A stretch of 64,000 nt of DNA, taken from the IMG/VR virus record IMGVR_UViG_3300031963_006119; one strand, written 5' to 3'. The notes under the pieces were generated by a model, which worked only from the letters and a program-made list of their open reading frames with translations, was not told the origin of the DNA and searched no databases. Both the position numbers and the translations under genes were made by a program. Source of the DNA: a virus. Lineage: Duplodnaviria > Heunggongvirae > Uroviricota > Caudoviricetes. This document shows, one piece after another, positions 14,988 to 48,360 of the stretch (within the stretch, counting starts at the first letter, position 1; each line of letters begins with the position of its first letter).

Positions 14988-15659
14988 ATGAAAAAAAGAA
15001 TCACAGGCGGTGGTAAGTTGTCGAGAAAAGTACTTACAATTCTAATGATGGCTGGAATGCTGTCATCGGGGGCGTGGGCCAACGATGTTTATGTTGATCA
15101 GATCGGTGATAATACATCTGTATCTATTACACAAACAGGAGCAGGCAACACAGTAAACGGTAATGTTGGTGGCAACGGCAACGTTGATGATGCTGCTATA
15201 ATTCGTGGCGATCTCAATAATGTAACTATAAGTCAAATTGGTGCTAGCAATACACTTAGTATGATTGTTAACAATGAATCTAATGGAACAGGATCTACCA
15301 TAGTAGTTTCAGCAGATGGTAGCAACAACAATCAAACTATCGGTTGTGGTACTGCATTAAGTTCAAGTTGTAATGCTAGTATTATTAGATCTGAAATTAC
15401 AGGTAATAGCAACAATACTATACAGACGTTAAGTGGTGGCGTTGTGCAGAGTAAAATTAATATTAATGGCGATTACAACAATGTAACACATACAGCATCA
15501 GGTGTAGGTTTACATAATGGAGAAATAACAGTTTCAGGCAGTGGCACTAATCAACTTGCCAATGCAGTGACACTAACACAGAGTGGAGTATTCGCTAAAA
15601 ATGCAGTTATTACCAGCAACGGTTCTAATAATAACGTTATTGTTACTCAGTCCGATTAA
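14988..15659 (+). CDS. secreted curlin-repeat (CsgA/CsgB-like) protein
   Basis: Signal peptide. Repeated Q-x-G-x-x-N-x-(x)5-x-Q units (DQIGDNTSVSITQTGAGNTVNG, ISQIGASNTLSM, TLTQSGVFAKNAVITSNGSNNNVIVTQ) resembling curlin repeats. Asn/Ser/Thr/Gly-rich. Confidence 0.55.
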   Translation: MKKRITGGGKLSRKVLTILMMAGMLSSGAWANDVYVDQIGDNTSVSITQTGAGNTVNGNVGGNGNVDDAAIIRGDLNNVTISQIGASNTLSMIVNNESNGTGSTIVVSADGSNNNQTIGCGTALSSSCNASIIRSEITGNSNNTIQTLSGGVVQSKININGDYNNVTHTASGVGLHNGEITVSGSGTNQLANAVTLTQSGVFAKNAVITSNGSNNNVIVTQSD

Positions 15660-17778: not shown

Positions 17779-18068
17779 GAAAAATATTATTAATTTTATT
17801 AGTTTGTTTGTCTAGCACAGTCAATGCACAATTTAGATATGATTATCCCTTGTTGTGTGACAGTACTGAAAAGATCATAAAAAGCCTTGGGGAAAATTAT
17901 AAAGAAATATTAACCTGGGGCGGAAAGCATTCTAGTGATAATAGTGCCTACAGTTTATGGATCAATGAAAAAGAAGGATCTTGGACATTACTTAAAATGA
18001 CTCCTGAAACTAGTTGCATACTAGGAGTAGGCACAGAATCTAAAATTAAACTAGGTACGTCAATATAA
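17775..18068 (+). CDS. small secreted protein
   Basis: Signal peptide MRKILLILLVCLSSTVNA; internal Met start overlapping upstream stop. Confidence 0.45.
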   Translation: MRKILLILLVCLSSTVNAQFRYDYPLLCDSTEKIIKSLGENYKEILTWGGKHSSDNSAYSLWINEKEGSWTLLKMTPETSCILGVGTESKIKLGTSI

Positions 18069-20113
18069 TGATTAAAAAAATACTTTTAAGTCCATGGACT
18101 GCTCTATTAACTCTAGCGTTAGTAGTAGGCATACGAATAGCAGATCCTACATTCGTTGAAAGTGTAAGACTACGCTACTTTGATACATTAATTACTTCTA
18201 AAGCACCTACAGAAAATAACATCTATACAGTTAACATAGACGAAGCTGCTTTAGACAAATACGGCCAATGGCCATTACCCAGGGCAGAATATGCTAAAAT
18301 TATTAAAGATTTGTATGATCGTGGTGCTGGCCTTGTCGTTCTCAATGTGCTTATGGCTGAGCCTGATCGCACTGGTGGCGACTCAACTCTTGCCTCAGCT
18401 CTTAAACAATATCCTGTAGTACTAGGATCAGTGCCTGCTGATAAAACTAAAAATATACCACGCAACCCAGGCAGTGCTGTACTAGGGCCAGAGTGGTTAG
18501 ATCAAATTGTACAATACCCGGGCCTTATTGCTAACGTACCGCAGTTAGAAAATTCAGCAGCAGGAATTGGTATTGTATCAACTATGCCTGAAGTTGACGG
18601 AGTGAATCGTCGATTACCTCTTATCGTTGCAGTTGGCGATAAACTTTATCCTAGCATAGCTATGGAAACACTGCGAGTAGCAGCTGGCGATTCAACCTTT
18701 CAAATCAAACTTTTTGAAGGCGGTGTTGAAAAAATGCGTATACCTAAGTTTGGTCCTGTTACTACAGATAACTTAGGTCGGGTATGGATTGATTGGAGTC
18801 AACAAAGTAAAAATGTTAGTTTACTTGAGTTGCCTAAAAACCTAGATGGTGCTATTGTTATTGTTGGTCCAACCGCAGCTGGTATCAGTAATCCTGTACC
18901 AACCAGTATGGGTGCTGTATTCCCACATGCTGTGCAGGCTAGTGTTATTGCTACAATGATTAACGGTATAGTTATACAGAGACCAGATTATGCCAACGGT
19001 GTAGAAATCTTAACACTAGTATTAGCAGGTATACTATTATTATTCTTAACAAGGTGGACTTATGTTGGTATTATTTCAGGTGTTGTTATTATTGGGACTA
19101 GTGTATTCGCTGGCTCCTATGCTTATGCACAGTTTAGTTGGCTCTTCGATTCAACTGGTATTGTGGTCGGGCTTGTTCTGGTTATGCTTCATGCTTATGG
19201 CATTAAGTTTATAAGCGAGTTCTTACAGAAACAAGCAATCAAGAAACAATTTGCAGGCTATGCTAGCCCTACAGTAGTTAGACTGTTACAAGAAAATCCA
19301 GACTTAATTAAGAAGGGTGTTAAGAAAGAAGTCAGTATACTGTTCTCAGACTTACGCGGCTTTACACCCTTAGGTGAAAGTTTTGGAGATGACGTTGCAG
19401 GTCTTACAAAAATAATGAACGGCTACATGGATGCCATTACACAACCTGTACTAGATGCAGACGGTATGATTATTAAGTACATTGGTGATGCTAGTATGCA
19501 TATACATAATGCACCTATTGAAGATTTGAACCATCCTGCTACAGCAGTACGCACAGGATTGAAGATGCTTAAAGCAGTGGAGAAATTTAATGAAGAAATC
19601 ATTATACCTCAAGGAAGACCTGCCGTTGGCATGGGTGCTGGTATTAATACAGGGTTGGGATATATTGGAGAGATGGGATCAACTGCAAGACACAGCTACG
19701 ATGTACTAGGTGATGCTGTTAGTACTGCTGCCCGTATTGAAAGTAAATGTAAAGAGTATGGATGCTTGTTGCTAGTTGGCGGCGCAACAGTTGATCGCTG
19801 TGGAGATGACTTCTTCTTCCTTAAGATTGATGATCTTGCTGTAAAAGGTAAGAGTGTAGGAATTGCTATCTATACAGTATTAGATGATATCACTGATACG
19901 TATCATGTTGCTAAAAAAATACACGAATCAATGCACGGTGCATACAGAGGACAAAAGTTTAGTACGGCTATTAGCATGTGTAAACAACTAAAAGGTCAGT
20001 TTGACGGCAAAATGGACAAGTATTACGACATGTGGATAGAGCGTTGTGAGTTCCAGCAGACTCAAACTCTACCTAAAGATTGGAACGGCGTTTTTATAGC
20101 GACAAGTAAATAA
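18068..20113 (+). CDS. membrane CHASE2-sensor class III adenylate/guanylate cyclase
   Basis: N-terminal TM, periplasmic CHASE2-like region, 3-4 TM helices. Cyclase catalytic core ILFSDLRGFTPLGE...YIGDASM...GINTGLGYIGEMGS. Confidence 0.7.
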   Translation: MIKKILLSPWTALLTLALVVGIRIADPTFVESVRLRYFDTLITSKAPTENNIYTVNIDEAALDKYGQWPLPRAEYAKIIKDLYDRGAGLVVLNVLMAEPDRTGGDSTLASALKQYPVVLGSVPADKTKNIPRNPGSAVLGPEWLDQIVQYPGLIANVPQLENSAAGIGIVSTMPEVDGVNRRLPLIVAVGDKLYPSIAMETLRVAAGDSTFQIKLFEGGVEKMRIPKFGPVTTDNLGRVWIDWSQQSKNVSLLELPKNLDGAIVIVGPTAAGISNPVPTSMGAVFPHAVQASVIATMINGIVIQRPDYANGVEILTLVLAGILLLFLTRWTYVGIISGVVIIGTSVFAGSYAYAQFSWLFDSTGIVVGLVLVMLHAYGIKFISEFLQKQAIKKQFAGYASPTVVRLLQENPDLIKKGVKKEVSILFSDLRGFTPLGESFGDDVAGLTKIMNGYMDAITQPVLDADGMIIKYIGDASMHIHNAPIEDLNHPATAVRTGLKMLKAVEKFNEEIIIPQGRPAVGMGAGINTGLGYIGEMGSTARHSYDVLGDAVSTAARIESKCKEYGCLLLVGGATVDRCGDDFFFLKIDDLAVKGKSVGIAIYTVLDDITDTYHVAKKIHESMHGAYRGQKFSTAISMCKQLKGQFDGKMDKYYDMWIERCEFQQTQTLPKDWNGVFIATSK

Positions 20114-38447: not shown

Positions 38448-38689
38448 TGACAGTTAAAAAAACATACGCAGATACTGTTGATCTGCACTGCACGGATAAA
38501 AATGAAATAGTGCCAGCTGAAATCCTAGAATTTCGCCCAGGCATGCTTATTAGTGTAAGTATACAAAGAAAAATTAAAATGATACTTAAATTTAATCATC
38601 GAGGCAATAACTATGTTGGCTCGATGGCAGGTCTTGAGTTTACTACTGCTGGCCCAAAAGAAACTATTACTTACGAAGGAAGAAGATAA
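38447..38689 (+). CDS. hypothetical small protein
   Basis: 80 aa. Confidence 0.35.
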
Positions 38690-39306
38690 TGCCACTAATC
38701 CCAATGGTTGTTGAACAAGAGACTCGCGGCGAGCGTTCATATGATATTTACAGCCGCTTGCTCAAAGATCGAATTGTTATGCTCAACGGCCCTGTAGAAG
38801 ATAATATGGCTAATGTAATTGTAGCACAGTTATTATTTTTAGAAGCAGAGAATCCAGACAAAGACATTAACCTATATATTAATTCGCCTGGCGGTGCAGT
38901 TACCGCAGGACTAGCTATCTACGACACAATGCAGTACATCAAATGTGATATTCGTACTATTGTCATGGGTCAGGCATGTTCAATGGGCTCGTTCCTAGCA
39001 CAAGCAGGCACGGCAGGTAAGCGAGTAGTACTGCCTGAAAGCCGTACTATGATACATCGAGTTAGTTCAGGTACTCCTGGAACACGTGGTTCAGTTCATG
39101 TACAAGAACTTCAATTTGAAGATGCTATTCGTTCAATGGAAGAAAGTAAAAAACTCAACAAGCGATTAACCGAGCTGTATGTCAAACACAACACCAAAGG
39201 CAAACAATACGATGAGCTTTTTGAAACAATGAAATTTGATACTTTCTTAAATGCACAAGAAGCGGTTGATTACGGTTTAGCAGATAAAGTTGTAGAGAAA
39301 CGATAA
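38689..39306 (+). CDS. clpP: ATP-dependent Clp protease proteolytic subunit ClpP
   Basis: [54 protein letters not shown], catalytic Ser in GQACSMGS, His in MIHRV; near-collinear with bacterial ClpP. Confidence 0.85.
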
Positions 39307-39309
39307 TGA

Positions 39310-39687
39310 GTGACGGAGGAAAAGGCAGTGCAAGAAGAAAAGGCGCAGATGATGCAAAATACAGCAGTGGATGGGACCGAATCTACGGTACAAGATACAA
39401 TGGCGGCACTAAAAGGGATCCCAACAGAGGAAGCCCTGACCCAGATGCTCAAAGAACAGATCCTAAGAGTGACGTTCCTCAAACTAGACGGTGATCAAAG
39501 AATTATGACCTGTACAAAAAGTTTGAATTATATTCCAGAAAAGTCACGTCCATCCAACAGTTCAAAGCCAAGCAAGCCTGGCACAATCAATGTTTGGGAC
39601 ATAGACGCTGACAACTGGCGTAGTTTTCGATATGATCGAGTTCAAGCAGTTGAACTTAACATTTCAAACATACAAGAGGTTGGTTGA
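39310..39687 (+). CDS. hypothetical protein
   Basis: 125 aa. Confidence 0.4.
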   Translation: MTEEKAVQEEKAQMMQNTAVDGTESTVQDTMAALKGIPTEEALTQMLKEQILRVTFLKLDGDQRIMTCTKSLNYIPEKSRPSNSSKPSKPGTINVWDIDADNWRSFRYDRVQAVELNISNIQEVG

Positions 39688-40034: not shown

Positions 40035-40063
40035 TTGACACAGAACTTTTTCGGTGTTATACT
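40035..40063 (+). promoter_or_regulatory. sigma70-like promoter TTGACA-17-TATACT ahead of first tRNA
   Basis: TTGACA 40035-40040, TATACT 40058-40063. Confidence 0.5.
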
Positions 40064-40170: not shown

Positions 40171-40243
40171 TCCTCAGTAGCACAGCGGTAGTTGCACTTG
40201 ACTGTTAATCAAGGTGTCCGTGGTTCGATCCCACGCTGAGGAG
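40171..40243 (+). tRNA. tRNA-Asn (GTT)
   Basis: Manual cloverleaf: acceptor TCCTCAG/CTGAGGA, anticodon loop CTGTTAA, T-loop GGTTCGATCC, CCA encoded. Confidence 0.75.
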
Positions 40244-40251
40244 CCAATTTA

Positions 40252-40338
40252 GGAGCGTGGGCCGGATGGTAAGGCAGCGGTTTGCTAAACCGTAGATCAC
40301 GTAAAAAGGGTCACAGGGTTCGACTCCCTGACGCTCCG
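40252..40338 (+). tRNA. tRNA-Ser (GCT), long variable arm
   Basis: Acceptor GGAGCGT/ACGCTCC, anticodon loop TTGCTAA, 87 nt with extra arm, CCA encoded. Confidence 0.7.
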
Positions 40339-40349
40339 CCAAATTAAAT

Positions 40350-40421
40350 GCACGATTCGTCTATCGGTTAGGACGCTGCCCTTTCAAGGCGGAAAGACGA
40401 GTTCGATTCTCGTATCGTGTA
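40350..40421 (+). tRNA. tRNA-Glu (TTC)
   Basis: Acceptor GCACGAT/ATCGTGT, anticodon loop CTTTCAA, T-loop TTCGATT. Confidence 0.7.
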
Positions 40422-40680
40422 CCAAGTTTTTTAGTAAGTTGTTTAAGGTTACCTAGTCCGCTAGGGGTGAACGAAAAGGTGATTGCGTAGCAGAAATGCT
40501 CGGCCTTGATACCCATGAAGCAGGAGGGTTCTAGAGTATGACGAGACACCATCGAGTCAAAGGGCAAGAACTATTCCAAACTCCAGGAAGGCGGCGGAAC
40601 TACTAGGCCTGTAATGAGGTCTTGACGCAAGTTGGTGATGCGTGTCAAGAACTTCCTCAAACAATTTATTAAAGATTTTG

Positions 40681-40754
40681 CACCGTTAGCTCAGTTGGTT
40701 AGATCGCTTGCCTGTCACGCAAGAGGCCAGGGGTTCGAGTCCCCTACGGTGCGC
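40681..40754 (+). tRNA. tRNA-Asp (GTC)
   Basis: GCACCGTTAGCTCAGTTGGTTAGA..., anticodon loop CTGTCAC, GGTTCGAGTCC, CCA. Confidence 0.8.
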
Positions 40755-40809
40755 CATATTAGTTGACTTTGATTGTAAAGAGTGTACAATTAAAATATAG
40801 AAAGTTTTT

Positions 40810-40880
40810 GCCCTTATAGTTAAATGGTATAACGACGGTTTTGTAATCCGTAGTTTGCAGTTCGATTCTGTGTAGGGGCA
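40810..40880 (+). tRNA. tRNA-Thr (TGT)
   Basis: Acceptor GCCCTTA/TAGGGGC, anticodon loop TTTGTAA, CCA. Confidence 0.7.
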
Positions 40881-40897
40881 CCAAAGTGTTAGTTTTT

Positions 40898-40978
40898 GCC
40901 CCGGTGGTGTAATGGTAGCCACGCTGGTCTTAGAAGCCAGTGCCGCAAGGCGTGTCGGTTCGAGTCCGACCTGGGGCA
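40898..40978 (+). tRNA. tRNA-Leu (TAG), long variable arm
   Basis: Acceptor GCCCCGG/CTGGGGC, anticodon loop CTTAGAA, variable arm TGCCGCAAGGCGTGT, CCA. Confidence 0.75.
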
Positions 40979-40991
40979 CCAATGTTAGTAA

Positions 40992-41062
40992 GCGGGATTA
41001 GTTTAATGGTAAAACAGCAGATTTCCAATCTTCGGTCATCAGTTCGATTCTGATATCCCGCT
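40992..41062 (+). tRNA. tRNA-Gly (TCC)
   Basis: Acceptor GCGGGAT/ATCCCGC, anticodon loop TTTCCAA, CCA. Confidence 0.7.
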
Positions 41063-41081
41063 CCAATTTTAAAAGGTAGAT

Positions 41082-41306
41082 ATGAAAGCAAAAACTTTAA
41101 GTCGTGGTCCAACTATTGATACTAATAAATGTGTTGAAAATGTTGGTGGTAGATTTGATCTAGTATTAATTGCTTCAGTTAGAGCTAGAGAAATAGCAAG
41201 GAAACACAGGAACGACGAAATGTCTACCCAAGTTAATGCGCCAGTTTCTGCACTGCTTGAAATTCAAGAAGGCAAAATTGGTAGAGAGTATCTAAGAAAA
41301 GTATAA
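41082..41306 (+). CDS. rpoZ: DNA-directed RNA polymerase omega subunit homolog
   Basis: RBS AAAAGG. VENVGGRFDLVLIASVRAREIARK matches the RpoZ signature (GNRFDLVLVAARRARQ). 74 aa. Embedded between tRNA genes. Confidence 0.6.
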   Translation: MKAKTLSRGPTIDTNKCVENVGGRFDLVLIASVRAREIARKHRNDEMSTQVNAPVSALLEIQEGKIGREYLRKV

Positions 41307-41327
41307 TCGGAGTGTGGCGCAGTCTGG

Positions 41328-41402
41328 CTAGCGCACCTGGTTTGGGACCAGGGGGTCCAAGGTTCGAATCCTTGTACTCCGACCATTTTTTGGGCTGTTA
41401 GT
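41328..41402 (+). tRNA. tRNA-Pro (TGG)
   Basis: C1-G72 start CGGAGTG as in bacterial tRNA-Pro, anticodon loop TTTGGGA, CCA. Confidence 0.75.
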
Positions 41403-41411
41403 GATAATGGG

Positions 41412-41483
41412 AGCACGGGGCCTTTGCAAGGCTTAGGTCGGGGTTCGATCCCCCGACGGTCCACCAAATATGCGGGTATGATG
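41412..41483 (+). tRNA. tRNA-Ala (TGC)
   Basis: Acceptor with G3:U70 wobble (Ala identity), anticodon loop TTTGCAA, T-arm CGGGGTTCGATCCCCCG, CCA. Confidence 0.7.
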
Positions 41484-41491
41484 TAATGGTA

Positions 41492-41562
41492 ACCTGAAAC
41501 CTTGCCAAGGTTTATTCGCGAGTTCGATTCTCGCTACCCGCTCCAAATGTTTTAGAAATATT
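41492..41562 (+). tRNA. tRNA-Gly (GCC)
   Basis: Acceptor GCGGGTA/TACCCGC, anticodon loop TTGCCAA, CCA. Confidence 0.75.
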
Positions 41563-41594
41563 TTTAAAAAGATGTTGACAAGACAGTAAAAATT

Positions 41595-41623
41595 TGCTAA
41601 AATAGACACATGTTAAGAATTTA
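41595..41623 (+). promoter_or_regulatory. consensus sigma70 promoter TTGACA-17-TAAAAT driving ORF-free region
   Basis: TTGACA 41595-41600, TAAAAT 41618-41623. Confidence 0.5.
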
Positions 41624-41629
41624 AGGGTG

Positions 41630-42830
41630 GTTTATCATCCTGTAGGCGGCTTGCCGTTTACAAAGAATAAGTGTGGCGACACACCCAAAGCTAGAATGCC
41701 TACATACTAGCGCCAGCAATGGTTCACGTAAACAAGCCTGCTCACTACCGCGAGGTAGCGTTCACTCATAAGACCGGTGGATGTAACAGCAAAGCTGATG
41801 TATGGGAAAGAACATTGTTCGACGTGCCGCAAGGAACACGGGGCAGTGAAAAGTAACAGGTGGTGCTGACTTCCATATAAAACCAATCAGTTAGTTGGTA
41901 TGAGAAAGGGTAGTGTACTTGTTCGAGGGGTCGCACCTAAGAGCTCGTATACAATGTAAATGGTTAGTGGGCTGTAGTAATACAGTACACCGATCGTGAA
42001 ACATCACTGAGTAGCTCGCGAGGCAAAAGGTATGTGGTGAGTTGTATTTTGTATTCCAAAAGAGTATGAAGCAACTGAGGCAGCTCATCGCGGTAGGTTA
42101 ATGTAGATCAATGGTAGATCATCTTCCTGTTAAGAAGAATGCTGTCGGTTCAAATCCGATCATTTAAACAAAAATGCAAAGACTGCCTCGGTCGTATGTG
42201 AAAAGTATCTAATACTTGAGTGGTAACACAATCAAGTCTAATGAAGCTCGCAAGGTAACATTAGTTTATACTGGAAGTTTCGTAGGGTGTTAGCGCACTC
42301 GAATAGCTCGCAAGGTTAACGGAATAGATGGTGTAGAATAGCATATGGCGTCAAGTCTACTGCCTGACTTAAAACGGCGATACTGTAAGCAGACTAGGTT
42401 ACATAGTGATATGGACTTAGTGGATGTCTAGAGAACGTATACTCGCAAGGTGTACGGTAATGCTAGAGGTGCTTATGGTTAAGATGTAATCTCAGTCTTA
42501 ACACTATTCTAAAACACATTACCACAAACAGCAATTAGAGCTGGTTGTATAACAATGTCGTAGTGTGTTTCAGAATAGCAGAAATGTTATGCACATGACA
42601 ATTCGTTGTCAGCAAGAGAATGTCACGCTATAAAGGTTTCTTCGAAGGACTGATATAGTAGAAGGGGACGGGTTCAACTCCCGGCTGATCGGAAGATCGG
42701 CGCAGATTGGTTGCTAACTGGACTAGTATCCCAAGTGACGTACCGAGTCCCGCTCGAGCTTGTTAATTCGGGTGAATGGTGCTTATAACGATGGAAGTAC
42801 TAATGAGTTGTCAGCTGTATAATATTTTGA
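41630..42830 (+). ncRNA. promoter-driven ORF-free structured region (candidate large ncRNA) with repeated CTCGCAAGG motifs, degenerate tRNA-like segment and tmRNA-like T-arm
   Basis: No + strand ORF in 1.2 kb of a gene-dense genome. Motif [A/G]CTCGC[A/G]AGG at 42013, 42245, 42305, 42441. tRNA-like 42097-42167. GGGGACGGGTTCAACTCCCGGCTGATCGG at 42664-42692. Confidence 0.35.
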
Positions 42831-42906
42831 AGCGGAGTAGAGGAGTCCAGTCGTCCTCGCTAGTCTCATAAGCTAGAGATCGCAGGTGCGAATCCTGCCT
42901 CCGCAA
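42831..42906 (+). tRNA. tRNA with CAT anticodon (Met or lysidine-Ile2), A1/A72 mismatch
   Basis: Anticodon stem-loop CTAGT-CTCATAA-GCTAG, T-arm GCAGGTGCGAATCCTGC, CCA; long D-loop. Confidence 0.6.
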
Positions 42907-42923
42907 CCAGTTTTATTTTCAAA

Positions 42924-43010
42924 GGAAGCGTGGCAGAGCCCGGCTTATTGCGTTAGTCTTGAAAACTAAAGACTCGAAAGGGTCCGTGAGTTCGAATCTC
43001 ACCGCTTCCG
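42924..43010 (+). tRNA. tRNA-Ser (TGA), long variable arm
   Basis: Acceptor GGAAGCG/CGCTTCC, anticodon loop CTTGAAA, 87 nt, CCA. Confidence 0.7.
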
Positions 43011-43028
43011 CCAGACATTAAAAAATAC

Positions 43029-43057
43029 TTGACAAGTAGACACAAATCATATACAAT
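43029..43057 (+). promoter_or_regulatory. sigma70-like promoter TTGACA-17-TACAAT
   Basis: TTGACA 43029-43034, TACAAT 43052-43057, RBS AAAAGGA before ATG 43084. Confidence 0.5.
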
Positions 43058-43083
43058 TAACACATAGAGAAAAGGACACAAAC

Positions 43084-43656
43084 ATGGAACTTACACTTCG
43101 TAAAGCAAGCGCACTTCAGAACAGCATCAACGATACTGTTAAAAGTATCACGTTGACACAAACAATTCGCATCAACGAGTTCCAAGAGGCTGAAGCTGAA
43201 ATATCTAAGGCTGCTCAGGAATTTAACAGCAATGTGTTTCGTCGTGTAGCACTGACAGATGTGCTGTACGAAATTCGCAAGGCAGTGAGCCGTGCAAATG
43301 CACAAGCAGGTGTCAATGAAAAGTTGGCAGACTTGGCTCAGCTTGAGAAAGATATCCAATTCTTTTCAGGTCTAACAGCTCATGACGTTCGTGAGTCTGC
43401 TCAAGTCATTGAGGGCAAGTTGAATAAAATTCGGAACCGCAAAGAAGACACTCGTGCAAGTTTGTACGGCCACAGTGATGAAGTTAGTACTTCTGTATTG
43501 ACTCGCAAAGATGTAGATACATTCCGTGCAAAAGTAGCAGAAGCCAAAAAGGCCAAGCAGAAATTGCAGGACGAGCTCTTAGAGCTTAATGTTCGTACAA
43601 CTATTGCCCTAAGTGGTAAGGCTGTGGACATTCTTAAGCACGAAGAATTGATCTAA
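43084..43656 (+). CDS. hypothetical coiled-coil protein
   Basis: 190 aa, good RBS, Lys/Glu/Ala-rich helical. Confidence 0.5.
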   Translation: MELTLRKASALQNSINDTVKSITLTQTIRINEFQEAEAEISKAAQEFNSNVFRRVALTDVLYEIRKAVSRANAQAGVNEKLADLAQLEKDIQFFSGLTAHDVRESAQVIEGKLNKIRNRKEDTRASLYGHSDEVSTSVLTRKDVDTFRAKVAEAKKAKQKLQDELLELNVRTTIALSGKAVDILKHEELI

Positions 43657-44165
43657 GGAAAACCCGGGCTCCCTTGCCCGTTATACACAGGGGGTGGGGC
43701 AGTCACCATAAAGAGTGCTAGGCGTGTAGTGCATTGGCCTTCCGATCCCGTGTAGGGAATCCGGGGACGCATTAGGTGAGGTTTAGCACCTTTCCAAAAG
43801 AATAAATGTTATGGACAGAGTAACCGCTCAGTCTAGGGCTCATGTGGTGTGAGTAGCTAGACACTTTATAAATGCTCTTTGAAGTTTAACTACACTTGAG
43901 AACACCAGTAGGTACTAAGTCGACTAACTGCTGAACGTGCAAGGAAGATACGGAGTTAAACAGTTTGGTTCGATTCCAACAGAGAGCACCTATAAGGTTT
44001 TGGTAGTATGCTGGTAACAGTAAACTACCCGGAAGAAGGCGAGAGATGAGGATGAACACCGTTATCGCTTCATGCGATGACTCCAATACTGGCAATCAGT
44101 CTTGAAAACTGATCGTGTTTGTATGCCCCGAATCTATCGAACTTGTGATTTGCTGTTCGGAAATA
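43645..44165 (+). ncRNA. rnpB: RNase P RNA-like (rnpB-like) element
   Basis: GC-rich, ORF-free island. GGAAAACCCGGGCTCCC (43657), CCAACAGAGAGCACC (43976), GCTGGTAACAGTAAACTACCCGGAAGAAGGC (44010) and GCCCCGAATCTATCGAAC (44125), in the same order as M1 RNA motifs AGGAAAGUCCGGGCUCC / CAACAGAGAGCA / GCUGGUAACAG..GGUAAACUCCACCCGGAGCAAGG / ACAGAACCCGGCUUAUCGG. Confidence 0.5.
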
Positions 44166-44302
44166 CGCAAGCCACTGTGCTTTGCATATTGTAATTTGCT
44201 TAGGGCCTAGAGTAACCTCAGCCCGTTTGCACCTTGCACAGTTCATTACTTACTTGCTAACTTTCGTTTTTTTATAAGTAATCTTACAAAGGAGACAAAC
44301 TT

Positions 44303-44977
44303 ATGTATGCAACAGGTGTTTTTCGTTCTGCATCGCAGATTAATAGTGCAATGGGCCGTGTTTACGGACATATGGCACTGGCAGTTATCACATCAATGAT
44401 TGTAAGTTATCTTGTAGGATCAAATACAACGCTGATGGAATTTTTCTTTACAGGCGCAATGAAATGGCTTGTAATCTTTGCGCCGCTTGTAGCCATTCTT
44501 GGCGTTAGCTTTGCAATGGACAAAATGAGTAAGAGTGCGTTACAGCTATTTTTACATGGATTTGCCGCATTAATGGGTCTAAGTTTTGCTACAATCTTTG
44601 TAGTATATAACATGGGAAGCATTGTAAGCGCATTCATGGGAGCTGCCGTTCTATTTGCTACAATGAGTGGCTATGGCTACTTCACTAAACGTAATTTGGA
44701 CGGAGTTGGCCAATTTATGTTCATTGGGTTGATTGCGATTGTTATTGCAAGTATAATCAATATTTTTATTGGTAGTACAGTTTTTCAAATGGTCATTAGT
44801 GCTATCGGAATTATTGTGTTCTTAGGCTTAACAGCATACGACACACAAAAGATTCGTGAGATGGTTAGTTACGACAATGATGGTAAGGCAGAAATTGCAG
44901 GCGCTCTTAGCTTGTACTTAGACTTTATCAACTTGTTCTTAATGTTACTACAACTATTTGGTGGTCGTAAGGACTAA
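44303..44977 (+). CDS. Bax inhibitor-1/YccA family membrane protein
   Basis: RBS AAAGGAGA; 7 predicted TM helices; 224 aa; BI-1/YccA-like N-terminal cytoplasmic segment and terminal basic motif (GGRKD). Confidence 0.6.
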   Translation: MYATGVFRSASQINSAMGRVYGHMALAVITSMIVSYLVGSNTTLMEFFFTGAMKWLVIFAPLVAILGVSFAMDKMSKSALQLFLHGFAALMGLSFATIFVVYNMGSIVSAFMGAAVLFATMSGYGYFTKRNLDGVGQFMFIGLIAIVIASIINIFIGSTVFQMVISAIGIIVFLGLTAYDTQKIREMVSYDNDGKAEIAGALSLYLDFINLFLMLLQLFGGRKD

Positions 44978-44984
44978 AGAATTT

Positions 44985-45056
44985 GCCTGGTTAGCTCAGG
45001 GGTAGAGCAACGCCTTTACACGGCGAAGGTCCGCGGTTCGAAACCGTGACCAGGTA
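44985..45056 (+). tRNA. tRNA-Val (TAC)
   Basis: GCCTGGTTAGCTCAGGGGTAGAGC..., anticodon loop TTTACAC, T-arm CGCGGTTCGAAACCGTG, CCA. Confidence 0.7.
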
Positions 45057-45129
45057 CCAGAAATGTTTCCGTATTCAAGAGTGTGGCAAAAATACAACAA
45101 TATTTTTGTCACTTTTTAAAGAAAATCTC

Positions 45130-45158
45130 TTGACAGAGATAAATAAATACAGTATACT
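45130..45158 (+). promoter_or_regulatory. sigma70-like promoter TTGACA-17-TATACT of short transcription unit
   Basis: TTGACA 45130-45135, TATACT 45153-45158. Confidence 0.45.
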
Positions 45159-45321
45159 ATACACATAGTAAGAAATTAACTAACAGAAAGAAAGATGATC
45201 AAAATGTTTAAGCAAATTAGAAAACATCAGATGTTTTGCATTCGCTGGTATCGACTACCAGGCGAGGGCCTTTCTGTAGGAGCAAGTTACGCATAACCAG
45301 TAACAGCTCAAAAAACAAAAA

Positions 45322-45362
45322 GACCCTCGGAATGTAAAATACTCCGGGGGTTTTTCTTTTAG
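45322..45362 (+). terminator. rho-independent terminator
   Basis: GACCCTCGGA...TCCGGGGG hairpin + TTTTTCTTTT. Confidence 0.6.
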
Positions 45363-45598
45363 TGCTATAGGAAACGAGATCCTGCTATCACTTTAAACTA
45401 GCAAATGGGCGGCCTAGGGGATGAAGTCTGTGGCGACAACACAGATGTTAAAATCCTAGAGTAGTTAAGAACACTATAGGGACGACTGGACTCATAGCCC
45501 AGAACTTTGTAAAAGGCGTTATTAGTGTTCTTAACTACACACTCTTCATTCGCCCTGCGACGGCGTCTAAAAGCATAGCGGAGAGTGTCACTAAGTTT

Positions 45599-45682
45599 GG
45601 AGATGTAGGAAAATTGGTAACCCCAGTGGACTGTAAATCCGCCGCCCTTCGGGCACTACTGGTTCGACTCCAGTCATCTCCA
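45599..45682 (+). tRNA. tRNA-Tyr (GTA), long variable arm
   Basis: Acceptor GGAGATG/CATCTCC, anticodon arm GTGGA-CTGTAAA-TCCGC, 84 nt, CCA. Confidence 0.75.
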
Positions 45683-45690
45683 CCAAACAT

Positions 45691-45762
45691 AGCCGCGTAG
45701 CTCAGAGGAAGAGCACTCGCTTGATAAGCGATAGGTCGACATTTCGAAACTGTCCGTGGCTA
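45691..45762 (+). tRNA. tRNA-Ile (GAT)
   Basis: AGCCGCGTAGCTCAGAGG..., anticodon loop TTGATAA, CCA. Confidence 0.7.
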
Positions 45763-45772
45763 CCAAATTAAT

Positions 45773-45843
45773 GTATCTCTAATGTAATGGCAGCATCACA
45801 GTCTCCAAAACTGTTCGTCGGGGTTCGAGTCCCTGGAGGTACG
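45773..45843 (+). tRNA. tRNA-Trp (CCA)
   Basis: Acceptor GTATCTC/GAGGTAC, anticodon arm ACAGT-CTCCAAA-ACTGT, T-arm CGGGGTTCGAGTCCCTG, CCA. Confidence 0.75.
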
Positions 45844-45853
45844 CCAAGTATAA

Positions 45854-45925
45854 CTCGCTTTAGTATAATGGATAATACAGTAGGCTTCTACCCTACGAAT
45901 ATGGGTTCGATTCCTGTAGGCGAGG
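45854..45925 (+). tRNA. tRNA-Arg (TCT)
   Basis: Acceptor CTCGCTT/AGGCGAG, anticodon arm GTAGG-CTTCTAC-CCTAC, CCA. Confidence 0.7.
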
Positions 45926-45935
45926 CCAGTAATAC

Positions 45936-46010
45936 GCACAGGTGGCAGAGAGGCCCAATGCAGTGGATTGCAAATCCGCAAAACCGTGAGTTCGAATCTC
46001 ACCCTGTGCT
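45936..46010 (+). tRNA. tRNA-Cys (GCA)
   Basis: Acceptor GCACAGG/CCTGTGC, anticodon loop TTGCAAA, T-arm GTGAGTTCGAATCTCAC, CCA. Confidence 0.7.
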
Positions 46011-46135
46011 CCAGTTACTGCAACAATCCGCTCGGGCTTCGTAGCGGAATGTAGTATTGAAGCCTATAAGTCCTGTGGAAGCAGGGGTCTAGATCCGTGT
46101 CCAAAGCGGTGTGGCTAACGAAGTGCCAAATTTAT

Positions 46136-46206
46136 TGGGGTATAGTGTAATGGTAGCACCACAGACTTTGACTCTGTTAGTCTAGGTTCGAACCCTAGTA
46201 CCCCTG
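46136..46206 (+). tRNA. tRNA-Gln (TTG)
   Basis: D-arm GTGT-AATGGTA-GCAC, anticodon arm ACAGA-CTTTGAC-TCTGT, T-arm CTAGGTTCGAACCCTAG, CCA; 1:72 pair uncertain. Confidence 0.65.
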
Positions 46207-46210
46207 CCAT

Positions 46211-46283
46211 AGTGATGTAGCATAGCGGCTAATGTACCTCCTTCATACGGAGTTTATCGTCGGTTCGAGTCCGACCATCACTA
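46211..46283 (+). tRNA. second tRNA with CAT anticodon (Met or lysidine-Ile2)
   Basis: Acceptor AGTGATG/CATCACT, anticodon loop TTCATAC, T-arm GTCGGTTCGAGTCCGAC, CCA. Confidence 0.7.
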
Positions 46284-46304
46284 CCAACTTTAAAGGAGAA
46301 ATAT

Positions 46305-46496
46305 ATGCCAACGATTAGATATCTTGATACTAGTATGTACGGATCGTATTTTGTCGACTGCGAAATATTAGAAAAAATAGACGAAGACACATTTAAGATT
46401 AAATTCTATGATGACAATATAGATGAATATGAAATAAAGGTAGTTGAGCGTGATCGTCTTGAGTTTCCTAAGTTTAGTGATTACGCATCTTATTAA
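46305..46496 (+). CDS. hypothetical small protein
   Basis: RBS AAAGGAGAAA then ATG; 63 aa; sits inside tRNA island. Confidence 0.45.
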   Translation: MPTIRYLDTSMYGSYFVDCEILEKIDEDTFKIKFYDDNIDEYEIKVVERDRLEFPKFSDYASY

Positions 46497-46670
46497 GGAG
46501 AAAACAAAATGGGGCGATCGTAGTTTTACTTATGATAGTAGCTTTAATTTACTTTATTGACAAAAATTTAAAATAGGAGAATGACATGAAACGTTCAAGT
46601 AAACGTTAGTGTCAACCTTGACCCCGTATTGGTCCTGGTTGGCACATTAAATCAATTTAATTACGACCAA

Positions 46671-46743
46671 CCACTTGTAGCGTTAACGGTAGCGCACTTG
46701 ACTCTTAATCAATGAGGTGTGAGTTCGAATCTCACCGGGTGGA
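46671..46743 (+). tRNA. tRNA-Lys (CTT)
   Basis: Acceptor CCACTTG/CGGGTGG (2 G-U), anticodon loop CTCTTAA, T-arm GTGAGTTCGAATCTCAC, CCA. Confidence 0.6.
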
Positions 46744-46750
46744 CCAATAC

Positions 46751-46823
46751 GGGAGTATGGTGAAATGGTTATCACAGCAGACTTTTAATCTGCCAGTTCC
46801 GGGTTCGAGTCCCGGTGCTCCTA
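46751..46823 (+). tRNA. tRNA-Lys (TTT)
   Basis: Acceptor GGGAGTA/TGCTCCT, D-arm GTGA-AATGGTTA-TCAC, anticodon arm GCAGA-CTTTTAA-TCTGC, CCA. Confidence 0.7.
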
Positions 46824-46837
46824 CCATAGATAAACAC

Positions 46838-46935
46838 ACTTTCAATCTGAATTGACAGATACAAACAACCAAGGGGAGCCTCTGGGTTCATCCAGTTTCA
46901 TCCTGAATTGACAGGAACAAGGTTGTAAGGGGAGC
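46838..46935 (+). repeat. two imperfect about 38-bp direct repeats (CTGAATTGACAG..AAGGGGAGCC)
   Basis: CAATCTGAATTGACAGATACAAACAACCAAGGGGAGCC and CATCCTGAATTGACAGGAACAAGGTTGTAAGGGGAGCC, each carrying a TTGACA hexamer. Confidence 0.5.
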
Positions 46936-46959
46936 CGAGTGTGTTTTTCTATGGTAATA

Positions 46960-47031
46960 CGGCCCTTGGTGAAATGGATATCATTTCGGTCTTCGAAACC
47001 GACGGTGGGAGTTCGATCCTCTCAGGGCCGG
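46960..47031 (+). tRNA. tRNA-Arg (TCG)
   Basis: Acceptor CGGCCCT/AGGGCCG, anticodon arm TCGGT-CTTCGAA-ACCGA, T-arm GGGAGTTCGATCCTCTC, CCA. Confidence 0.65.
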
Positions 47032-47041
47032 CCAAATATAT

Positions 47042-47113
47042 ACCCCTGTCGTTCAATGGATAGGATACCATGCTACGAACGTGGGGACGGTGGTTCGATT
47101 CCATCCAGGGGTG
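47042..47113 (+). tRNA. tRNA-Arg (ACG)
   Basis: Acceptor ACCCCTG/CAGGGGT, anticodon arm CCATG-CTACGAA-CGTGG, T-arm GGTGGTTCGATTCCATC, CCA. Confidence 0.7.
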
Positions 47114-47122
47114 CCAATCAAT

Positions 47123-47193
47123 GGTGTTGTTAGTGTAGTGGTAACACGACTGTCTGTGAAACAGTAGACCAGGGTTCGATTCCCGACTTCACC
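47123..47193 (+). tRNA. tRNA-His (GTG) with G-1/C73 but two T-T mismatches in acceptor stem
   Basis: D-arm GTGT-AGTGGTA-ACAC, anticodon arm ACTGT-CTGTGAA-ACAGT, extra 5' G and discriminator C typical of His, CCA; acceptor and T stems imperfect. Confidence 0.5.
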
Positions 47194-47332
47194 CCAAATT
47201 TGTAGTAACCAGCTAGGTGCTGTGTAAAAGGTGTTGCGGATAGTAGAGGTCTCATAGAGATAAGCTCGCTGTCGTTAAAGATCGTGACGCAAACTAATTG
47301 AGTTTTGTCTCAACCTACTACATTTTATTTTT

Positions 47333-47405
47333 GCCGCTTTAGCTGATGTGGTCATAGCAACGGATTGAAAATCCGAGGAACCCTGTTCGATCCGGGGAGG
47401 CGGCA
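47333..47405 (+). tRNA. tRNA-Phe (GAA)
   Basis: Acceptor GCCGCTT/AGGCGGC, anticodon loop TTGAAAA, T-arm CCCTGTTCGATCCGGGG, CCA. Confidence 0.7.
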
Positions 47406-47435
47406 CCATTAACTGTGTATGATTTTATATTATGG

Positions 47436-47510
47436 AGCGACCGGGGGATTCGAACCTCCGCTTCTTGGGTTACAGTCCCAAGTGTAGTGACCACTCTACT
47501 ACGAGTCGCA
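47436..47510 (-). tRNA. atypical tRNA on minus strand (anticodon region ACTGTAA/TGT, C33 or enlarged loop)
   Basis: Reverse complement reads GCGACTCGTAGTAGAGTGGTCACTACACTTGGGACTGTAACCCAAGAAGCGGAGGTTCGAATCCCCCGGTCGCTCCA: clear T-arm/CCA and D-arm GTAG/CTAC but 6-bp anticodon stem or 9-nt loop and imperfect acceptor. Confidence 0.45.
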
Positions 47511-47517
47511 TATTGAT

Positions 47518-48360
47518 TTAAGGTATTGTGCTACTAGTTGCCAACAGTTCTTTTATTTTGTCAAAAATTATCTTATTTCCTTCTGCGTTCATTGCATTAG
47601 CAGATTGTTGATAACCAATGTTATATTGGCTGTTATCTTTATATAGCTCGCGCATAGAAAGATCTACAGGTCCAGACGTAATAGTATACCAAGAAGGGTA
47701 CCATTGATCTTTACTAAAAAAATGTACACAGGGTATTTTTTTATTATGCAAGTACGAATCAATTTGCATTAATGCCCCATAGTATCTGTTTAATTGTAAA
47801 TCTGGATGATACATATATTTTCTAGTTAGTTCAAAAGCAGTCCAAAGTTCTTGGTAAAACTTTTCATCGTCTGATGCTATTCGAACCTGATCTAATAGTG
47901 CTTGTTTAATTTCACTACTATCCCCATCTTGCCATTTTATAAATGCATCAGTATAGTTTTCAAAATGAATGTTATAATATTCTAATAATTGTAAACATGC
48001 TCCGTTAGGGACGTTTTCAAAAAAATCAATATAAAAATCATGTTCTTTAAAGTCAGTTCCCCACATTGATTCTACCCAATTTCGAGCAGTGTATTTTCTA
48101 TCAAATGTAGTTTTGTCTATGTTCGAAACATCTTTGTTCCAGCTAGGCATAAAGATATGATACGGTGCGGCATGGAATATAATTGCTGTATCTAGTTTTT
48201 TAGTTTTCTTTAAATTGAATAATATTCTTTCCTCACTGCAATGTGGGATTCCAGAATGGACAATATTAGCATCAAACTCTTTTTTTAATAAACTTACAAA
48301 ATTCCATTCTTGGTTAGGATCATATCTAGAAATACTATCTCCATACACACCTATGTTCAT
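47518..48360 (-). CDS. hypothetical protein (possible SGNH-type hydrolase), opposite strand
   Basis: 280-aa ORF on - strand starting MNIGVYGDSIS (GDS block); divergent from promoter at 48446. Confidence 0.45.
   Translation of the reverse strand: MNIGVYGDSISRYDPNQEWNFVSLLKKEFDANIVHSGIPHCSEERILFNLKKTKKLDTAIIFHAAPYHIFMPSWNKDVSNIDKTTFDRKYTARNWVESMWGTDFKEHDFYIDFFENVPNGACLQLLEYYNIHFENYTDAFIKWQDGDSSEIKQALLDQVRIASDDEKFYQELWTAFELTRKYMYHPDLQLNRYYGALMQIDSYLHNKKIPCVHFFSKDQWYPSWYTITSGPVDLSMRELYKDNSQYNIGYQQSANAMNAEGNKIIFDKIKELLATSSTIP

Follow-up and report, generated by a model that had tools for sequence, protein, structure and literature searches.

A tRNA island with a GOLLD RNA and further conserved structured RNAs in an uncultured, probably T4-like phage

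Known phage tRNA arrays and the island at 40171–47509

As the island described here shows, regions rich in tRNA genes are hubs for large structured RNAs, one of which is GOLLD (RF02032), for which Weinberg (2009) is reportedly a source. The published GOLLD env-38 has a 420-nt 5' region, a variable linker and a 3' region of ~410 nt; by cryo-electron microscopy it forms a 14-mer cage with the linker inside, and GOLLD genes are located near tRNA islands, sometimes with tRNAs in the linker (PMC12286853). Mycobacterial arrays of 32–37 tRNAs contain a GOLLD with an unexpressed pseudo-tRNA inside it (PMC6582537). T5 carries 23 tRNAs (PMC11464382), and Shigella phage Sf14 carries 26 tRNAs for 19 amino acids (PMC12482277). 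In T4, the last genes of the tRNA cluster encode two stable RNAs, rnaC (species 1, 139 nt) and rnaD (species 2, 119 nt; NC_000866, 70908–71171). We analyzed a 64,000-nucleotide stretch of DNA from a member of Caudoviricetes (IMG/VR record IMGVR_UViG_3300031963_006119), here called the window, and compared the tRNA genes and structured RNAs at its positions 40171–47509 with these systems.

We consider it probable (roughly 85%) that 40171–47509 is an RNA-gene island of a large uncultured T4-like/pelagimyophage-like phage, which holds a minimal decoder set of 26 tRNAs, a complete GOLLD, conserved structured RNAs, a Lys leader and three or four protein genes. Islands that combine tRNA genes with GOLLD have been described before; what is new here are the additional RNA families and the candidate Lys leader. 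The likeness to the GOLLD-containing phage islands and mycobacterial arrays consists of a cluster of ~30 tRNAs, a GOLLD inside it with tRNAs on both sides, and a linker that holds a tRNA or pseudo-tRNA of no evident function. However, the lineage of the window is Melnitz/pelagimyophage-like, with no close GOLLD in GenBank phages (blastn); the anticodon of the linker module drifts between GUU, CUU and UUU among the relatives of the window; and the island adds conserved RNA families and a leader with a very short open reading frame (mini-ORF). In size and near-completeness, the tRNA set is comparable to those of T5 and Sf14. Unlike these sets, it encodes CCA in every tRNA and follows a design of one U34 tRNA per codon box. 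The features that lift the island above the ordinary are unannotated, widespread RNA families supported by covariation, which appear to travel with such islands, and the Lys cassette.

We called tRNA genes over the 64-kb window with ARAGORN and with the Rfam tRNA covariance model (RF00005) at its curated gathering threshold of 29 bits; CCA, G-1, the discriminator and mismatches were read directly from the sequence ends. Both methods identically called 28 tRNA-type genes, all inside 40171–47509, with 27 on the + strand and one on the − strand, and neither found a further tRNA in the remainder of the window. The Rfam scores of the + strand calls ranged from 47.7 to 67.2 bits, and the − strand call at 47433–47509 scored 31.0 bits. 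CCA was encoded in 27 of the 28 genes, the sole exception being the call at 42097–42169, which is embedded in GOLLD. The same 27 genes showed an intact 7-bp acceptor stem with discriminator and 3' CCA; 42097–42169 has mismatches at 1:72 and 3:70 in addition to the missing CCA. The 26 canonical + strand tRNAs have 7-nt anticodon loops, all encode CCA and, by these structural features, are predicted to be chargeable. All 20 amino acids are represented, provided that at least one of the two CAT tRNAs is a tRNA-Met.

An earlier note on this DNA, made from the letters alone, had described a nearly complete tRNA island with at least 26 tRNAs and other genes interspersed, and this description was right. 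The note had proposed a check with tRNA predictors, ARAGORN among them, in which far fewer intact tRNAs would have spoken against the island; ARAGORN returned 28 calls. The encoded CCA that it reported was borne out in 27 of 28 genes, and the two CAT tRNAs were found at 42831–42909 and 46211–46286. Its list of specificities (24 named, two CAT and one atypical minus-strand tRNA, that is, 27) was also correct and did not include the second Asn(GTT) at 42097–42169. GOLLD, its tRNA module and the wide spread of the other RNA families were absent from the note.

The canonical tRNAs, all on the + strand, are given here with their Rfam scores. The first group consists of tRNA-Asn(GTT) at 40171–40246 (55.8 bits), Ser(GCT) at 40252–40341 (48.1 bits), Glu(TTC) at 40350–40424 (55.9 bits), Asp(GTC) at 40680–40756 (64.5 bits), Thr(TGT) at 40810–40883 (61.5 bits), Leu(TAG) at 40898–40981 (54.2 bits) and Gly(TCC) at 40992–41065 (64.3 bits). 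Pro(TGG) at 41308–41385 (61.8 bits), Ala(TGC) at 41392–41466 (47.7 bits) and Gly(GCC) at 41472–41545 (59.9 bits) precede GOLLD, and an initiator-like tRNA(CAT) at 42831–42909 (49.3 bits) and Ser(TGA) at 42924–43013 (54.1 bits) follow it. Val(TAC) is located at 44985–45059 (59.6 bits). Further downstream are Tyr(GTA) at 45599–45685 (50.1 bits), Ile(GAT) at 45691–45765 (55.6 bits), Trp(CCA) at 45773–45846 (51.4 bits), Arg(TCT) at 45854–45928 (57.0 bits), Cys(GCA) at 45936–46013 (57.1 bits), Gln(TTG) at 46136–46209 (62.6 bits) and an elongator-type tRNA(CAT) at 46211–46286 (60.5 bits). The two Lys tRNAs, Lys(CTT) at 46671–46746 (58.1 bits) and Lys(TTT) at 46751–46826 (67.2 bits), are followed by Arg(TCG) at 46960–47034 (56.5 bits), Arg(ACG) at 47042–47116 (51.3 bits), His(GTG) at 47123–47196 (49.3 bits) and Phe(GAA) at 47333–47408 (50.6 bits). 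tRNA-His has an encoded G-1, C73 and a CCA ending at 47196, and its acceptor stem contains two U•U mismatches.

The two CAT tRNAs differ in type. The gene at 42831–42909 has an A1•A72 mismatch, A11:U24 and A73, with one G-C pair in the anticodon stem in place of three consecutive ones; its T-loop (UGCGAAU) and D-loop are odd. We describe it as initiator-like, as two of the three features of bacterial initiators are present. The gene at 46211–46286 has a paired A1-U72 and C11:G24, which is the elongator type. It is probably tRNA-Met, because the relatives read AUA with Ile(TAT) and not with a third CAT tRNA. The − strand tRNA-like gene at 47433–47509 has the anticodon TGT, an encoded CCA, C33 and an A•C mismatch in the T stem, and no homolog was found among the related loci examined. 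It may represent a 3'-end structure and not a decoding tRNA. It lies 8 nt downstream of a convergent 280-aa gene at 47518–48360 (− strand), which has no family match.

The GOLLD gene lies between tRNA-Gly(GCC) and the initiator-like tRNA on the + strand. Its conserved 3' domain, together with the linker and the last hairpin of the 5' domain, was identified at 42034–42498 by the Rfam model RF02032 (201 bits against a gathering threshold of 150, E = 3e-55); the match covers model positions 1–416 of 416 and is not truncated. The ~420 nt upstream (41615–42033) are free of open reading frames (ORFs) and retain 74–95% DNA identity across 13 related loci, in which the adjacent protein genes are far more diverged. 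RNAalifold predicted 115 conserved pairs in this segment, 41 of them with compensatory changes. That is, a structured 5' domain of ~400 nt is contiguous with the 3' domain, and the total of ~884 nt (41615–42498) exceeds 800 nt. The other hallmarks of GOLLD, a phage context near tRNAs and a tRNA in the variable linker, were also found. A sigma-70-like promoter (TTGACA-17-TGCTAAAAT) matches the consensus at 41575–41603 (+), and in the alignment of loci the conserved block starts at ~41615, 11 nt past the promoter end at 41603. By these features, the window holds a complete GOLLD gene of ~884 nt of the known kind, with its own predicted promoter. As in other GOLLD RNAs, the 3' domain is conserved and the 5' domain varies more; at ~420 nt, the latter matches the 5' region of env-38 in length. 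A comparison of the window GOLLD with env-38 using nhmmer gave no match even for the 3' half, and a comparison of sequence only is thus uninformative here. blastn of GOLLD and the island against GenBank phages, run for both near and distant matches, hit only tRNA fragments.

The tRNA-like module in the GOLLD linker (42097–42169, +) was called by ARAGORN with anticodon GTT and scored 57.4 bits with the Rfam tRNA model. It sits in the insertion-rich linker of the RF02032 alignment and occupies the same site in 11 loci with GOLLD homologs, several of which are identical copies. The module never carries CCA, and its anticodon is GTT, CTT or TTT. The inner four acceptor pairs covary and the outer pairs are mismatched. 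We infer that 42097–42169 is a structural tRNA-like module of GOLLD, not a second tRNA-Asn, which therefore accounts for the 28th tRNA call. By analogy with env-38, the window GOLLD would form a cage with the tRNA-like insert inside. The window thus offers a full GOLLD gene with a defined putative promoter and a drifting tRNA-like insert. Directly after GOLLD, at 42502–42578 (+), a long and nearly perfect hairpin without a U-tract was found (folding z = −3.85; 0 of 200 shuffles fold as well). It was not conserved in the related loci examined, and it may mark the 3' end or a processing site of GOLLD.

Decoding capacity and the role of the tRNAs

The anticodons of the island were compared with the codon usage of the window, based on 68 ORFs without overlaps that contain 15,231 codons. 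Third codon positions of the phage are AT-rich (G+C content at third positions, GC3, of 0.31). Each four-codon box has one U34 tRNA (Leu-UAG, Val-UAC, Ser-UGA, Pro-UGG, Thr-UGU, Ala-UGC, Gly-UCC and Arg-UCG), and the two-codon boxes are served by the usual G34 or U34 tRNAs. The isoacceptors beyond this minimum are Gly-GCC, Arg-ACG, Arg-UCU and Lys-CUU. Under strict wobble rules, 79% of the codons can be decoded by the set; if a U34 tRNA serves its entire four-codon box, the only codons left unread are UUA and UUG (Leu) and AUA (Ile). UUA is the commonest Leu codon of the phage (31% of Leu). The anticodons thus make up a general decoder set of minimal size and do not selectively supplement given codons.

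The closest related islands, L042, L039 and L004, contain 31–34 tRNAs and add Leu(TAA), Leu(CAA) and Ile(TAT) to two CAT tRNAs. Therefore, the island in the window most likely lost, or never had, exactly these three decoders. Gene order differs widely among the related islands, indicating that the island is a shuffled mosaic. The island is a clean example of a minimal design of one tRNA per codon box and shows which decoders can be lost. In the proposed scheme, multi-gene precursors would be transcribed from several sigma-70-like promoters and then cut into tRNAs and other RNAs by host RNase P and 3' nucleases; since CCA is encoded, no CCA addition would be needed.

Several points weigh against our reading of 40171–47509. 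The 5' domain is a putative homolog of those in other GOLLD RNAs, with no sequence match to env-38. Promoters, transcript ends and RNA maturation are inferred from sequence patterns, and the − strand tRNA call is marginal at 31 bits. UUA, UUG and AUA, which make up 5.3% of the 15,231 phage codons, have no decoder in the island. The earlier note had taken so large a set to imply a strong codon-usage mismatch with the host or translation independence, which is supported only in part: the three missing decoders make independence incomplete, and full translational autonomy is excluded, barring further tRNAs beyond the window.

In current discussion, the large tRNA sets of phages are seen as a means to withstand the depletion of host tRNAs and tRNA-cleaving defences. 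Phage tRNAs have been found to counter tRNA-targeting defences (PMC10264068), and AriB cleaves host tRNA-Lys, in which case T5 tRNA-Lys rescues infection (PMC11464382). We propose that the tRNAs of the island would keep phage translation going while host tRNAs are diluted, degraded or cleaved by such defences. Judged from this published work, sustaining translation under the loss of host tRNAs is the most likely role of the set.

The island might instead be a counter-defence device proper, in which nuclease-resistant tRNAs replace host tRNAs that PARIS-type systems or anticodon nucleases have cut, while decoys are provided by the tRNA-like RNAs (the module in GOLLD and Elements D2 and C, described below). 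The published cases (PMC10264068; AriB against host tRNA-Lys and rescue by T5 tRNA-Lys, PMC11464382) give this idea its footing, and the island itself contains two Lys tRNAs with a dedicated Lys-codon leader as well as several tRNA mimics without CCA. However, a complete decoder set exceeds the need against any single nuclease, and the decoy role is speculation. We regard a counter-defence device as possible and hold the idea tentatively.

Compensation for codon usage is the main rival to sustained translation under host-tRNA loss. It supposes that the AT-rich codons of the phage differ strongly from those of the host and that the island supplies tRNAs for codons that the host reads poorly. 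This is the classical explanation (summarised in PMC10264068); the GC3 of 0.31 is in line with it, and the U34 tRNAs match frequent NNA codons by Watson-Crick pairing. The set is nevertheless unselective, as every box is covered, including those of the rare codons CGG and CGA (Arg-UCG) and AAG (Lys-CUU), although the decoder of UUA, the commonest Leu codon, was left out. In addition, Melnitz, the closest cultured relative, makes do with four tRNAs (PMC9004378). The unselective anticodon set does not support codon compensation, which we consider doubtful. The pattern of a minimal set fits the replacement of host tRNAs, or an insurance against their loss, better than codon compensation.

Conserved RNA elements and a candidate Lys leader before two tRNA genes

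The gaps between the tRNA and protein genes were compared by blastn and nhmmer with viral loci fetched through a 190-aa protein and a BI-1 protein encoded in the island (see below). Alignments were based on MAFFT, and parts of the structures were set by hand. The Rfam search comprised 4,227 families, with a cutoff of E ≤ 1 for the island as a whole and of E ≤ 10 for 42499–44302 and 45060–45598. Five elements on the + strand, C, D1, D2, E and H, were conserved in related loci and had no Rfam match in this search.

Element C (~215 nt, 42597–42812) lies downstream of GOLLD and comprises a closing helix of 9–13 bp and two hairpins, one T-arm-like (GGGTTCAACTCCC) and one whose UUCGAA loop is conserved. 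The closing helix of the window differs wholly in sequence from that of the relatives and yet is still paired. A 16-nt motif of the element gave at least 120 matches in IMG/VR, a lower bound as are all our motif-scan counts; 112 were confirmed by nhmmer, 99 of them unique and nearly all of full length. In an alignment of 30 sequences with 53 pairs, 91.9% of the cells were paired, as compared with 77.4% in column shuffles and 35–45% with slid partners; related sequences inflate these shuffle statistics, and the slid-partner controls were also clearly lower. Pairs changed on both sides numbered 40 of 53, against a shuffle mean of 22.5 and 12–17 for slid partners, and none of the 500 shuffles reached the observed values. 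We rejected an assignment of Element C as a Y RNA (YrlA) of an Rsr system, since there was no Rfam match and no TROVE domain in the large ORFs scanned; the assignment is also weakened by the deletion of the acceptor-like hairpin in several family members. An RNase P-like reading of C and E was likewise rejected: the motifs AGAGAAAGUC and GGGUGAAUGG, which we take to resemble those of RNase P, are in the wrong order, and there is no Rfam match.

Element D1 (~215 nt, 43657–43873) starts at the stop codon of the gene for the 190-aa protein in the window, as it does in 45 of 118 loci. About half of the loci lack an ORF before D1, which in these cases begins a few nt after the CCA end of a tRNA; a role as a general 3' untranslated region of the 190-aa gene was rejected for this reason. 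At least 117 motif matches were found in viral contigs. Among 35 sequences, 96.4% of the cells were paired against 87.2% in shuffles, the covariation was 0.331 against 0.164, and 0 of 500 shuffles were as good. Element D2 (43874–43990), which directly follows D1, is a tRNA-like RNA of 117 nt; its acceptor-like stem has 8 bp, its central arm is long, a T-arm is present, and CCA is not conserved. The T-stem of D2 covaries (TTGG/CCAA, CGGG/CCCG, TTCG/CGAA), and the element was found in 23 loci. An intron-containing, class II or selenocysteine tRNA was considered and rejected, as ARAGORN did not call D2 with introns allowed and a threshold of 90%.

Element E (~225 nt, 45362–45588) is located behind a terminator-like hairpin and, as a rule, at the head of a tRNA block; the next gene is most often tRNA-Tyr, as it is here. 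The motif had at least 33 matches, and nhmmer found 70 loci. Among 28 sequences, 41 pairs were supported, 28 of them with compensatory changes. Element H (~110 nt, 46834–46944; folding z = −3.58) contains an internal direct repeat (CTGAATTGACAG...AAGGGGAGCC, twice) and is closed by ACACACT/AGTGTGT. It is 90–93% identical in L042 and L039 and occurs in 12 loci by nhmmer, which makes it a conserved element with a putative structure.

Among the stretches fetched by the motifs, tRNAs accompany Element C in 126 of 126, D1 in 117 of 118 and E in 70 of 70; the median number of tRNAs per stretch is 13–21. The alignments suggest that C, D1 and E are widespread phage RNA families without an Rfam entry, which travel with tRNA islands. 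Each was found in 70 to more than 120 viral contig stretches, and these RNAs are candidates for structural work like that on the GOLLD and ROOL cages. T4 offers a likeness, as genes for small stable RNAs also occur within its tRNA cluster. Its rnaC bears large inserted hairpins and, adjacent to the 3' end, a T-arm (CCGGGTTCGAATCCCGG), an architecture that D2 shares and C shares in part. However, C, D1 and E are longer (~215–225 nt), and a side-by-side reading by eye found no sequence similarity between rnaC or rnaD and the RNAs of the window, so that homology is not established.

C, D1 and E could be something other than independent RNA genes, namely decayed tRNA genes, or parts of tRNA precursors that act as spacers or as scaffolds for processing. 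C, D1 and E lie among tRNAs, often a few nt from a 3' CCA or a 5' end, and T-arm-like hairpins occur in C and D2. Against this, C, D1 and E measure ~215–225 nt with many helices kept by compensatory changes, and their sequence conservation is as high as that of the tRNAs. The adjacent tRNAs differ from locus to locus, leaving no fixed partner tRNA. In addition, the modules move separately; C is downstream of GOLLD here and 1.3 kb upstream of it in L004. A spacer or scaffold origin is unlikely in our judgment, and we continue to treat C, D1 and E as candidate RNA families. It is highly improbable that the island as a whole is a decaying or inactive remnant rich in pseudo-tRNAs: the embedded tRNA-like module without CCA, the marginal − strand call of 31 bits, the two mismatches of tRNA-His and the odd loops of the initiator-like tRNA could be taken that way, but the 26 + strand tRNAs score 47.7–67.2 bits against 29 with 7-nt anticodon loops and CCA in all, and related islands keep 31–34 tRNAs.

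A further conserved segment, Element G, precedes the two Lys tRNAs on the + strand. Its first part (46575–46609) consists of a Shine-Dalgarno sequence, AGGAG, at 46575–46579 and a mini-ORF at 46586–46609, which reads ATG AAA CGT TCA AGT AAA CGT TAG (MKRSSKR*). Among 53 unique homologs, 47 keep the Shine-Dalgarno sequence, the ATG start, the TAG stop and two Lys codons, one at position 2 and the other in the penultimate sense position. The general pattern is ATG, Lys, Arg (rarely Pro), one to four small residues, Lys, Arg or Leu, and always TAG. The length varies from 6 to 8 codons with insertions and deletions in multiples of three, and the 8-codon variants have a third Lys. Variable sites are mostly third codon positions (GCT/GCA/GCG, CGT/CGA/CGC), and Ser appears both as TCA and as AGT. 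This conservation and codon pattern give the mini-ORF the look of a translated sequence. It is the only one of its type in the island.

The second part of Element G (46609–46672), recognised by pairing and covariation, consists of the hairpins H1 (46609–46645) and H2 (46637–46672). The first base of H1 is the G of the mini-ORF stop codon. The 3' strand of H1 (GGTTGGCAC) can alternatively pair with CCAACC at 46667–46672 to form H2, so that the strand at 46637–46645 is shared; the 3' strand of H2 covers the leader and nt 1–2 of tRNA-Lys(CUU). In 42 sequences, pairing was 90.8% for H1 and 81.2% for H2, as compared with 25–50% for slid partners. Column 79 of the shared strand covaries both with column 49 (UA/AU/CG) and with column 113 (UA/AU/GC). 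From these pairings, H1 and H2 are predicted to be mutually exclusive, and the choice between them may depend on the ribosome. Among unique Lys(CTT) genes from viral loci, 48 of 56 have a mini-ORF leader within 130 nt upstream, and Lys(TTT) directly follows Lys(CTT) in 46 of the 48 leader-bearing cassettes.

The cassette resembles the trp, his and pheST attenuators in three respects: a Shine-Dalgarno sequence precedes a very short ORF enriched in codons for one amino acid (Lys here); mutually exclusive hairpins directly follow it, the first starting at the stop codon; and the genes downstream are tied to that amino acid (two Lys tRNAs). In contrast to these attenuators, the genes that would be regulated are tRNAs and not biosynthetic or synthetase genes, there are only two or three Lys codons, and the cassette has no intrinsic terminator. 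No U-tract and no terminator-like site were found after H1 or H2; therefore, it is not a classical terminator-based attenuator. Since H2 pairs with the leader and the first two nt of the tRNA, the likely output would be tRNA folding or RNase P processing. We propose that the position of the ribosome on the Lys codons would select H1 or H2 and so control the folding or RNase P processing of the Lys tRNAs. When Lys-tRNA(UUU) is scarce, for example because a nuclease of the PrrC or PARIS type has cut the tRNA-Lys of the host, the ribosome would stall at the early AAA and H1 would form, so that the 5' end of the Lys tRNA precursor would stay free for folding and RNase P cleavage. When Lys-tRNA is plentiful, a ribosome at the stop codon would melt H1, and H2 would form, sequestering the leader and the first tRNA nt.

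The literature search found no published precedent for a leader peptide before tRNA genes. It is a tentative proposal, at present short of an even chance, that 46575–46826 is a ribosome-sensed control element for tRNA genes and, separately, that C, D1 and E are three new widespread large phage RNA families alongside GOLLD. If true, the cassette would be the first leader-peptide-type feedback on tRNA maturation, and it offers a testable idea of how a phage might sense the state of an often-attacked tRNA through translation of a leader.

Two ORF-free gaps, 40425–40679 and 47196–47332, fold somewhat better than their shuffles (z = −2.1 and −2.4); no homolog of either was found in the related loci examined. 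Permuted (two-piece) transfer-messenger RNA (tmRNA) is present in Melnitz-like phages. No tmRNA was called in the window by ARAGORN at default settings or in the Rfam search described above, and ARAGORN at an 85% threshold gave only spurious tmRNA calls that reuse real tRNAs. tmRNA genes were seen in the related contigs L025, L032, L055 and L060/L090, near islands or near BI-1; the tag in L032 is ANDSVYSLAA.

Protein genes, promoters and phage lineage

All of the following genes and sites are on the + strand. An omega (RpoZ/Rpb6)-like protein of 74 aa is encoded at 41082–41306 and matches PF01192 (E = 1.3e-10, 41.6 bits against a cutoff of 26, profile positions 1–51 of 53). Among the viral stretches fetched, tblastn found homologs in 86, and tRNAs are present in 80 of these. 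Matches to the protein in GenBank phage records were confined to contigs named 'Acinetobacter phage MD-2021a', at 35% identity.

The 190-aa protein is encoded at 43084–43656, behind a sigma-70-like promoter (TTGACA-17-TACAAT, 43029–43057) that was assigned by consensus match only. Pfam gave no match and PHROG none of significance, and cultured phages yielded no homolog. Its 566 homolog clusters are all of ~190 aa and unnamed; at least two and up to 34 tRNAs occur in 38 of 46 homolog loci. The family is seen almost only inside tRNA islands, often with D1 directly after it. We consider the protein a marker of such islands. The AlphaFold2 model is all-helical and coiled-coil-like (predicted local distance difference test score, pLDDT, of 79), and its best fold match in the PDB, the uncharacterised 3kdq (E = 0.01), is uninformative.

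A membrane protein of the BI-1/YccA family is encoded at 44303–44977 and matches PF01027 (E = 1.7e-53, 181.9 bits against 34.1, profile positions 2–207 of 207). tRNAs were present in only 15 of 86 loci with homologs. BI-1 proteins are 70–90% identical across hundreds of viral contigs and at most 52% identical to cellular homologs, all from Alphaproteobacteria; therefore, BI-1 is a long-resident phage gene. An inference of the host from these best cellular matches was rejected, as ≤52% identity is too distant. A 63-aa ORF at 46305–46496, with no Pfam or PHROG match, is a putative gene.

Before the first tRNA block, a sigma-70-like promoter with an extended −10 element (TTGACA-17-TGnTATACT, 40035–40063) matches 11 of 12 consensus positions; it too is a consensus match only. 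A short unit at 45130–45355 was recognised by sequence match and runs from a sigma-70-like promoter (45130–45158) to a terminator-like hairpin with a T-run (45322–45355), which occurs at the same place in L021. The unit contains a 33-codon ORF and has weak, sub-threshold Rfam matches to amino-acid operon leaders (His_leader, 24.6 bits, E = 0.076). The earlier note had also placed rpoZ, a BI-1/YccA membrane protein, a coiled-coil protein, promoters and ORF-free structured segments in the island. The first two agree with the Pfam matches and the third with the all-helical 190-aa model; consensus-type promoter sites are present, and the ORF-free segments correspond to the conserved structured RNAs.

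At the DNA level, blastn of the island against GenBank phages found no match beyond tRNA fragments. Elsewhere, the window encodes ClpP, WYL_2, endonuclease VII, DNA ligase, CsgG, FecR-like, radical-SAM/B12 and IMPDH/GMP-reductase-like proteins. A cyclase-like protein of 681 aa shares 53% identity with its counterpart in Methylophilales phage Melnitz and 35% with the one in Pelagibacter phage HTVC008M. These protein matches suggest a T4-like/pelagimyophage-like phage that is distantly related to Melnitz. Cultured relatives of this lineage have only about four tRNAs, as in Melnitz (PMC9004378), in contrast to the 28 tRNA-type genes found here; the large set would thus be an expansion within the lineage. 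The genes for the CsgG curli-pore (13661–14908), FecR-like (15583–16704) and cyclase-like (18068–20113) proteins are also present in Melnitz and pelagimyophages. The radical-SAM/B12-binding protein is encoded at 1176–3113 and the IMPDH/GMP-reductase-like protein at 8158–9324, and the genes for the ClpP protease and WYL_2 (Sm-like SH3) lie directly before the island, at 38689–39687. The IMG/VR contigs that carry related islands reach lengths of up to 383 kb.

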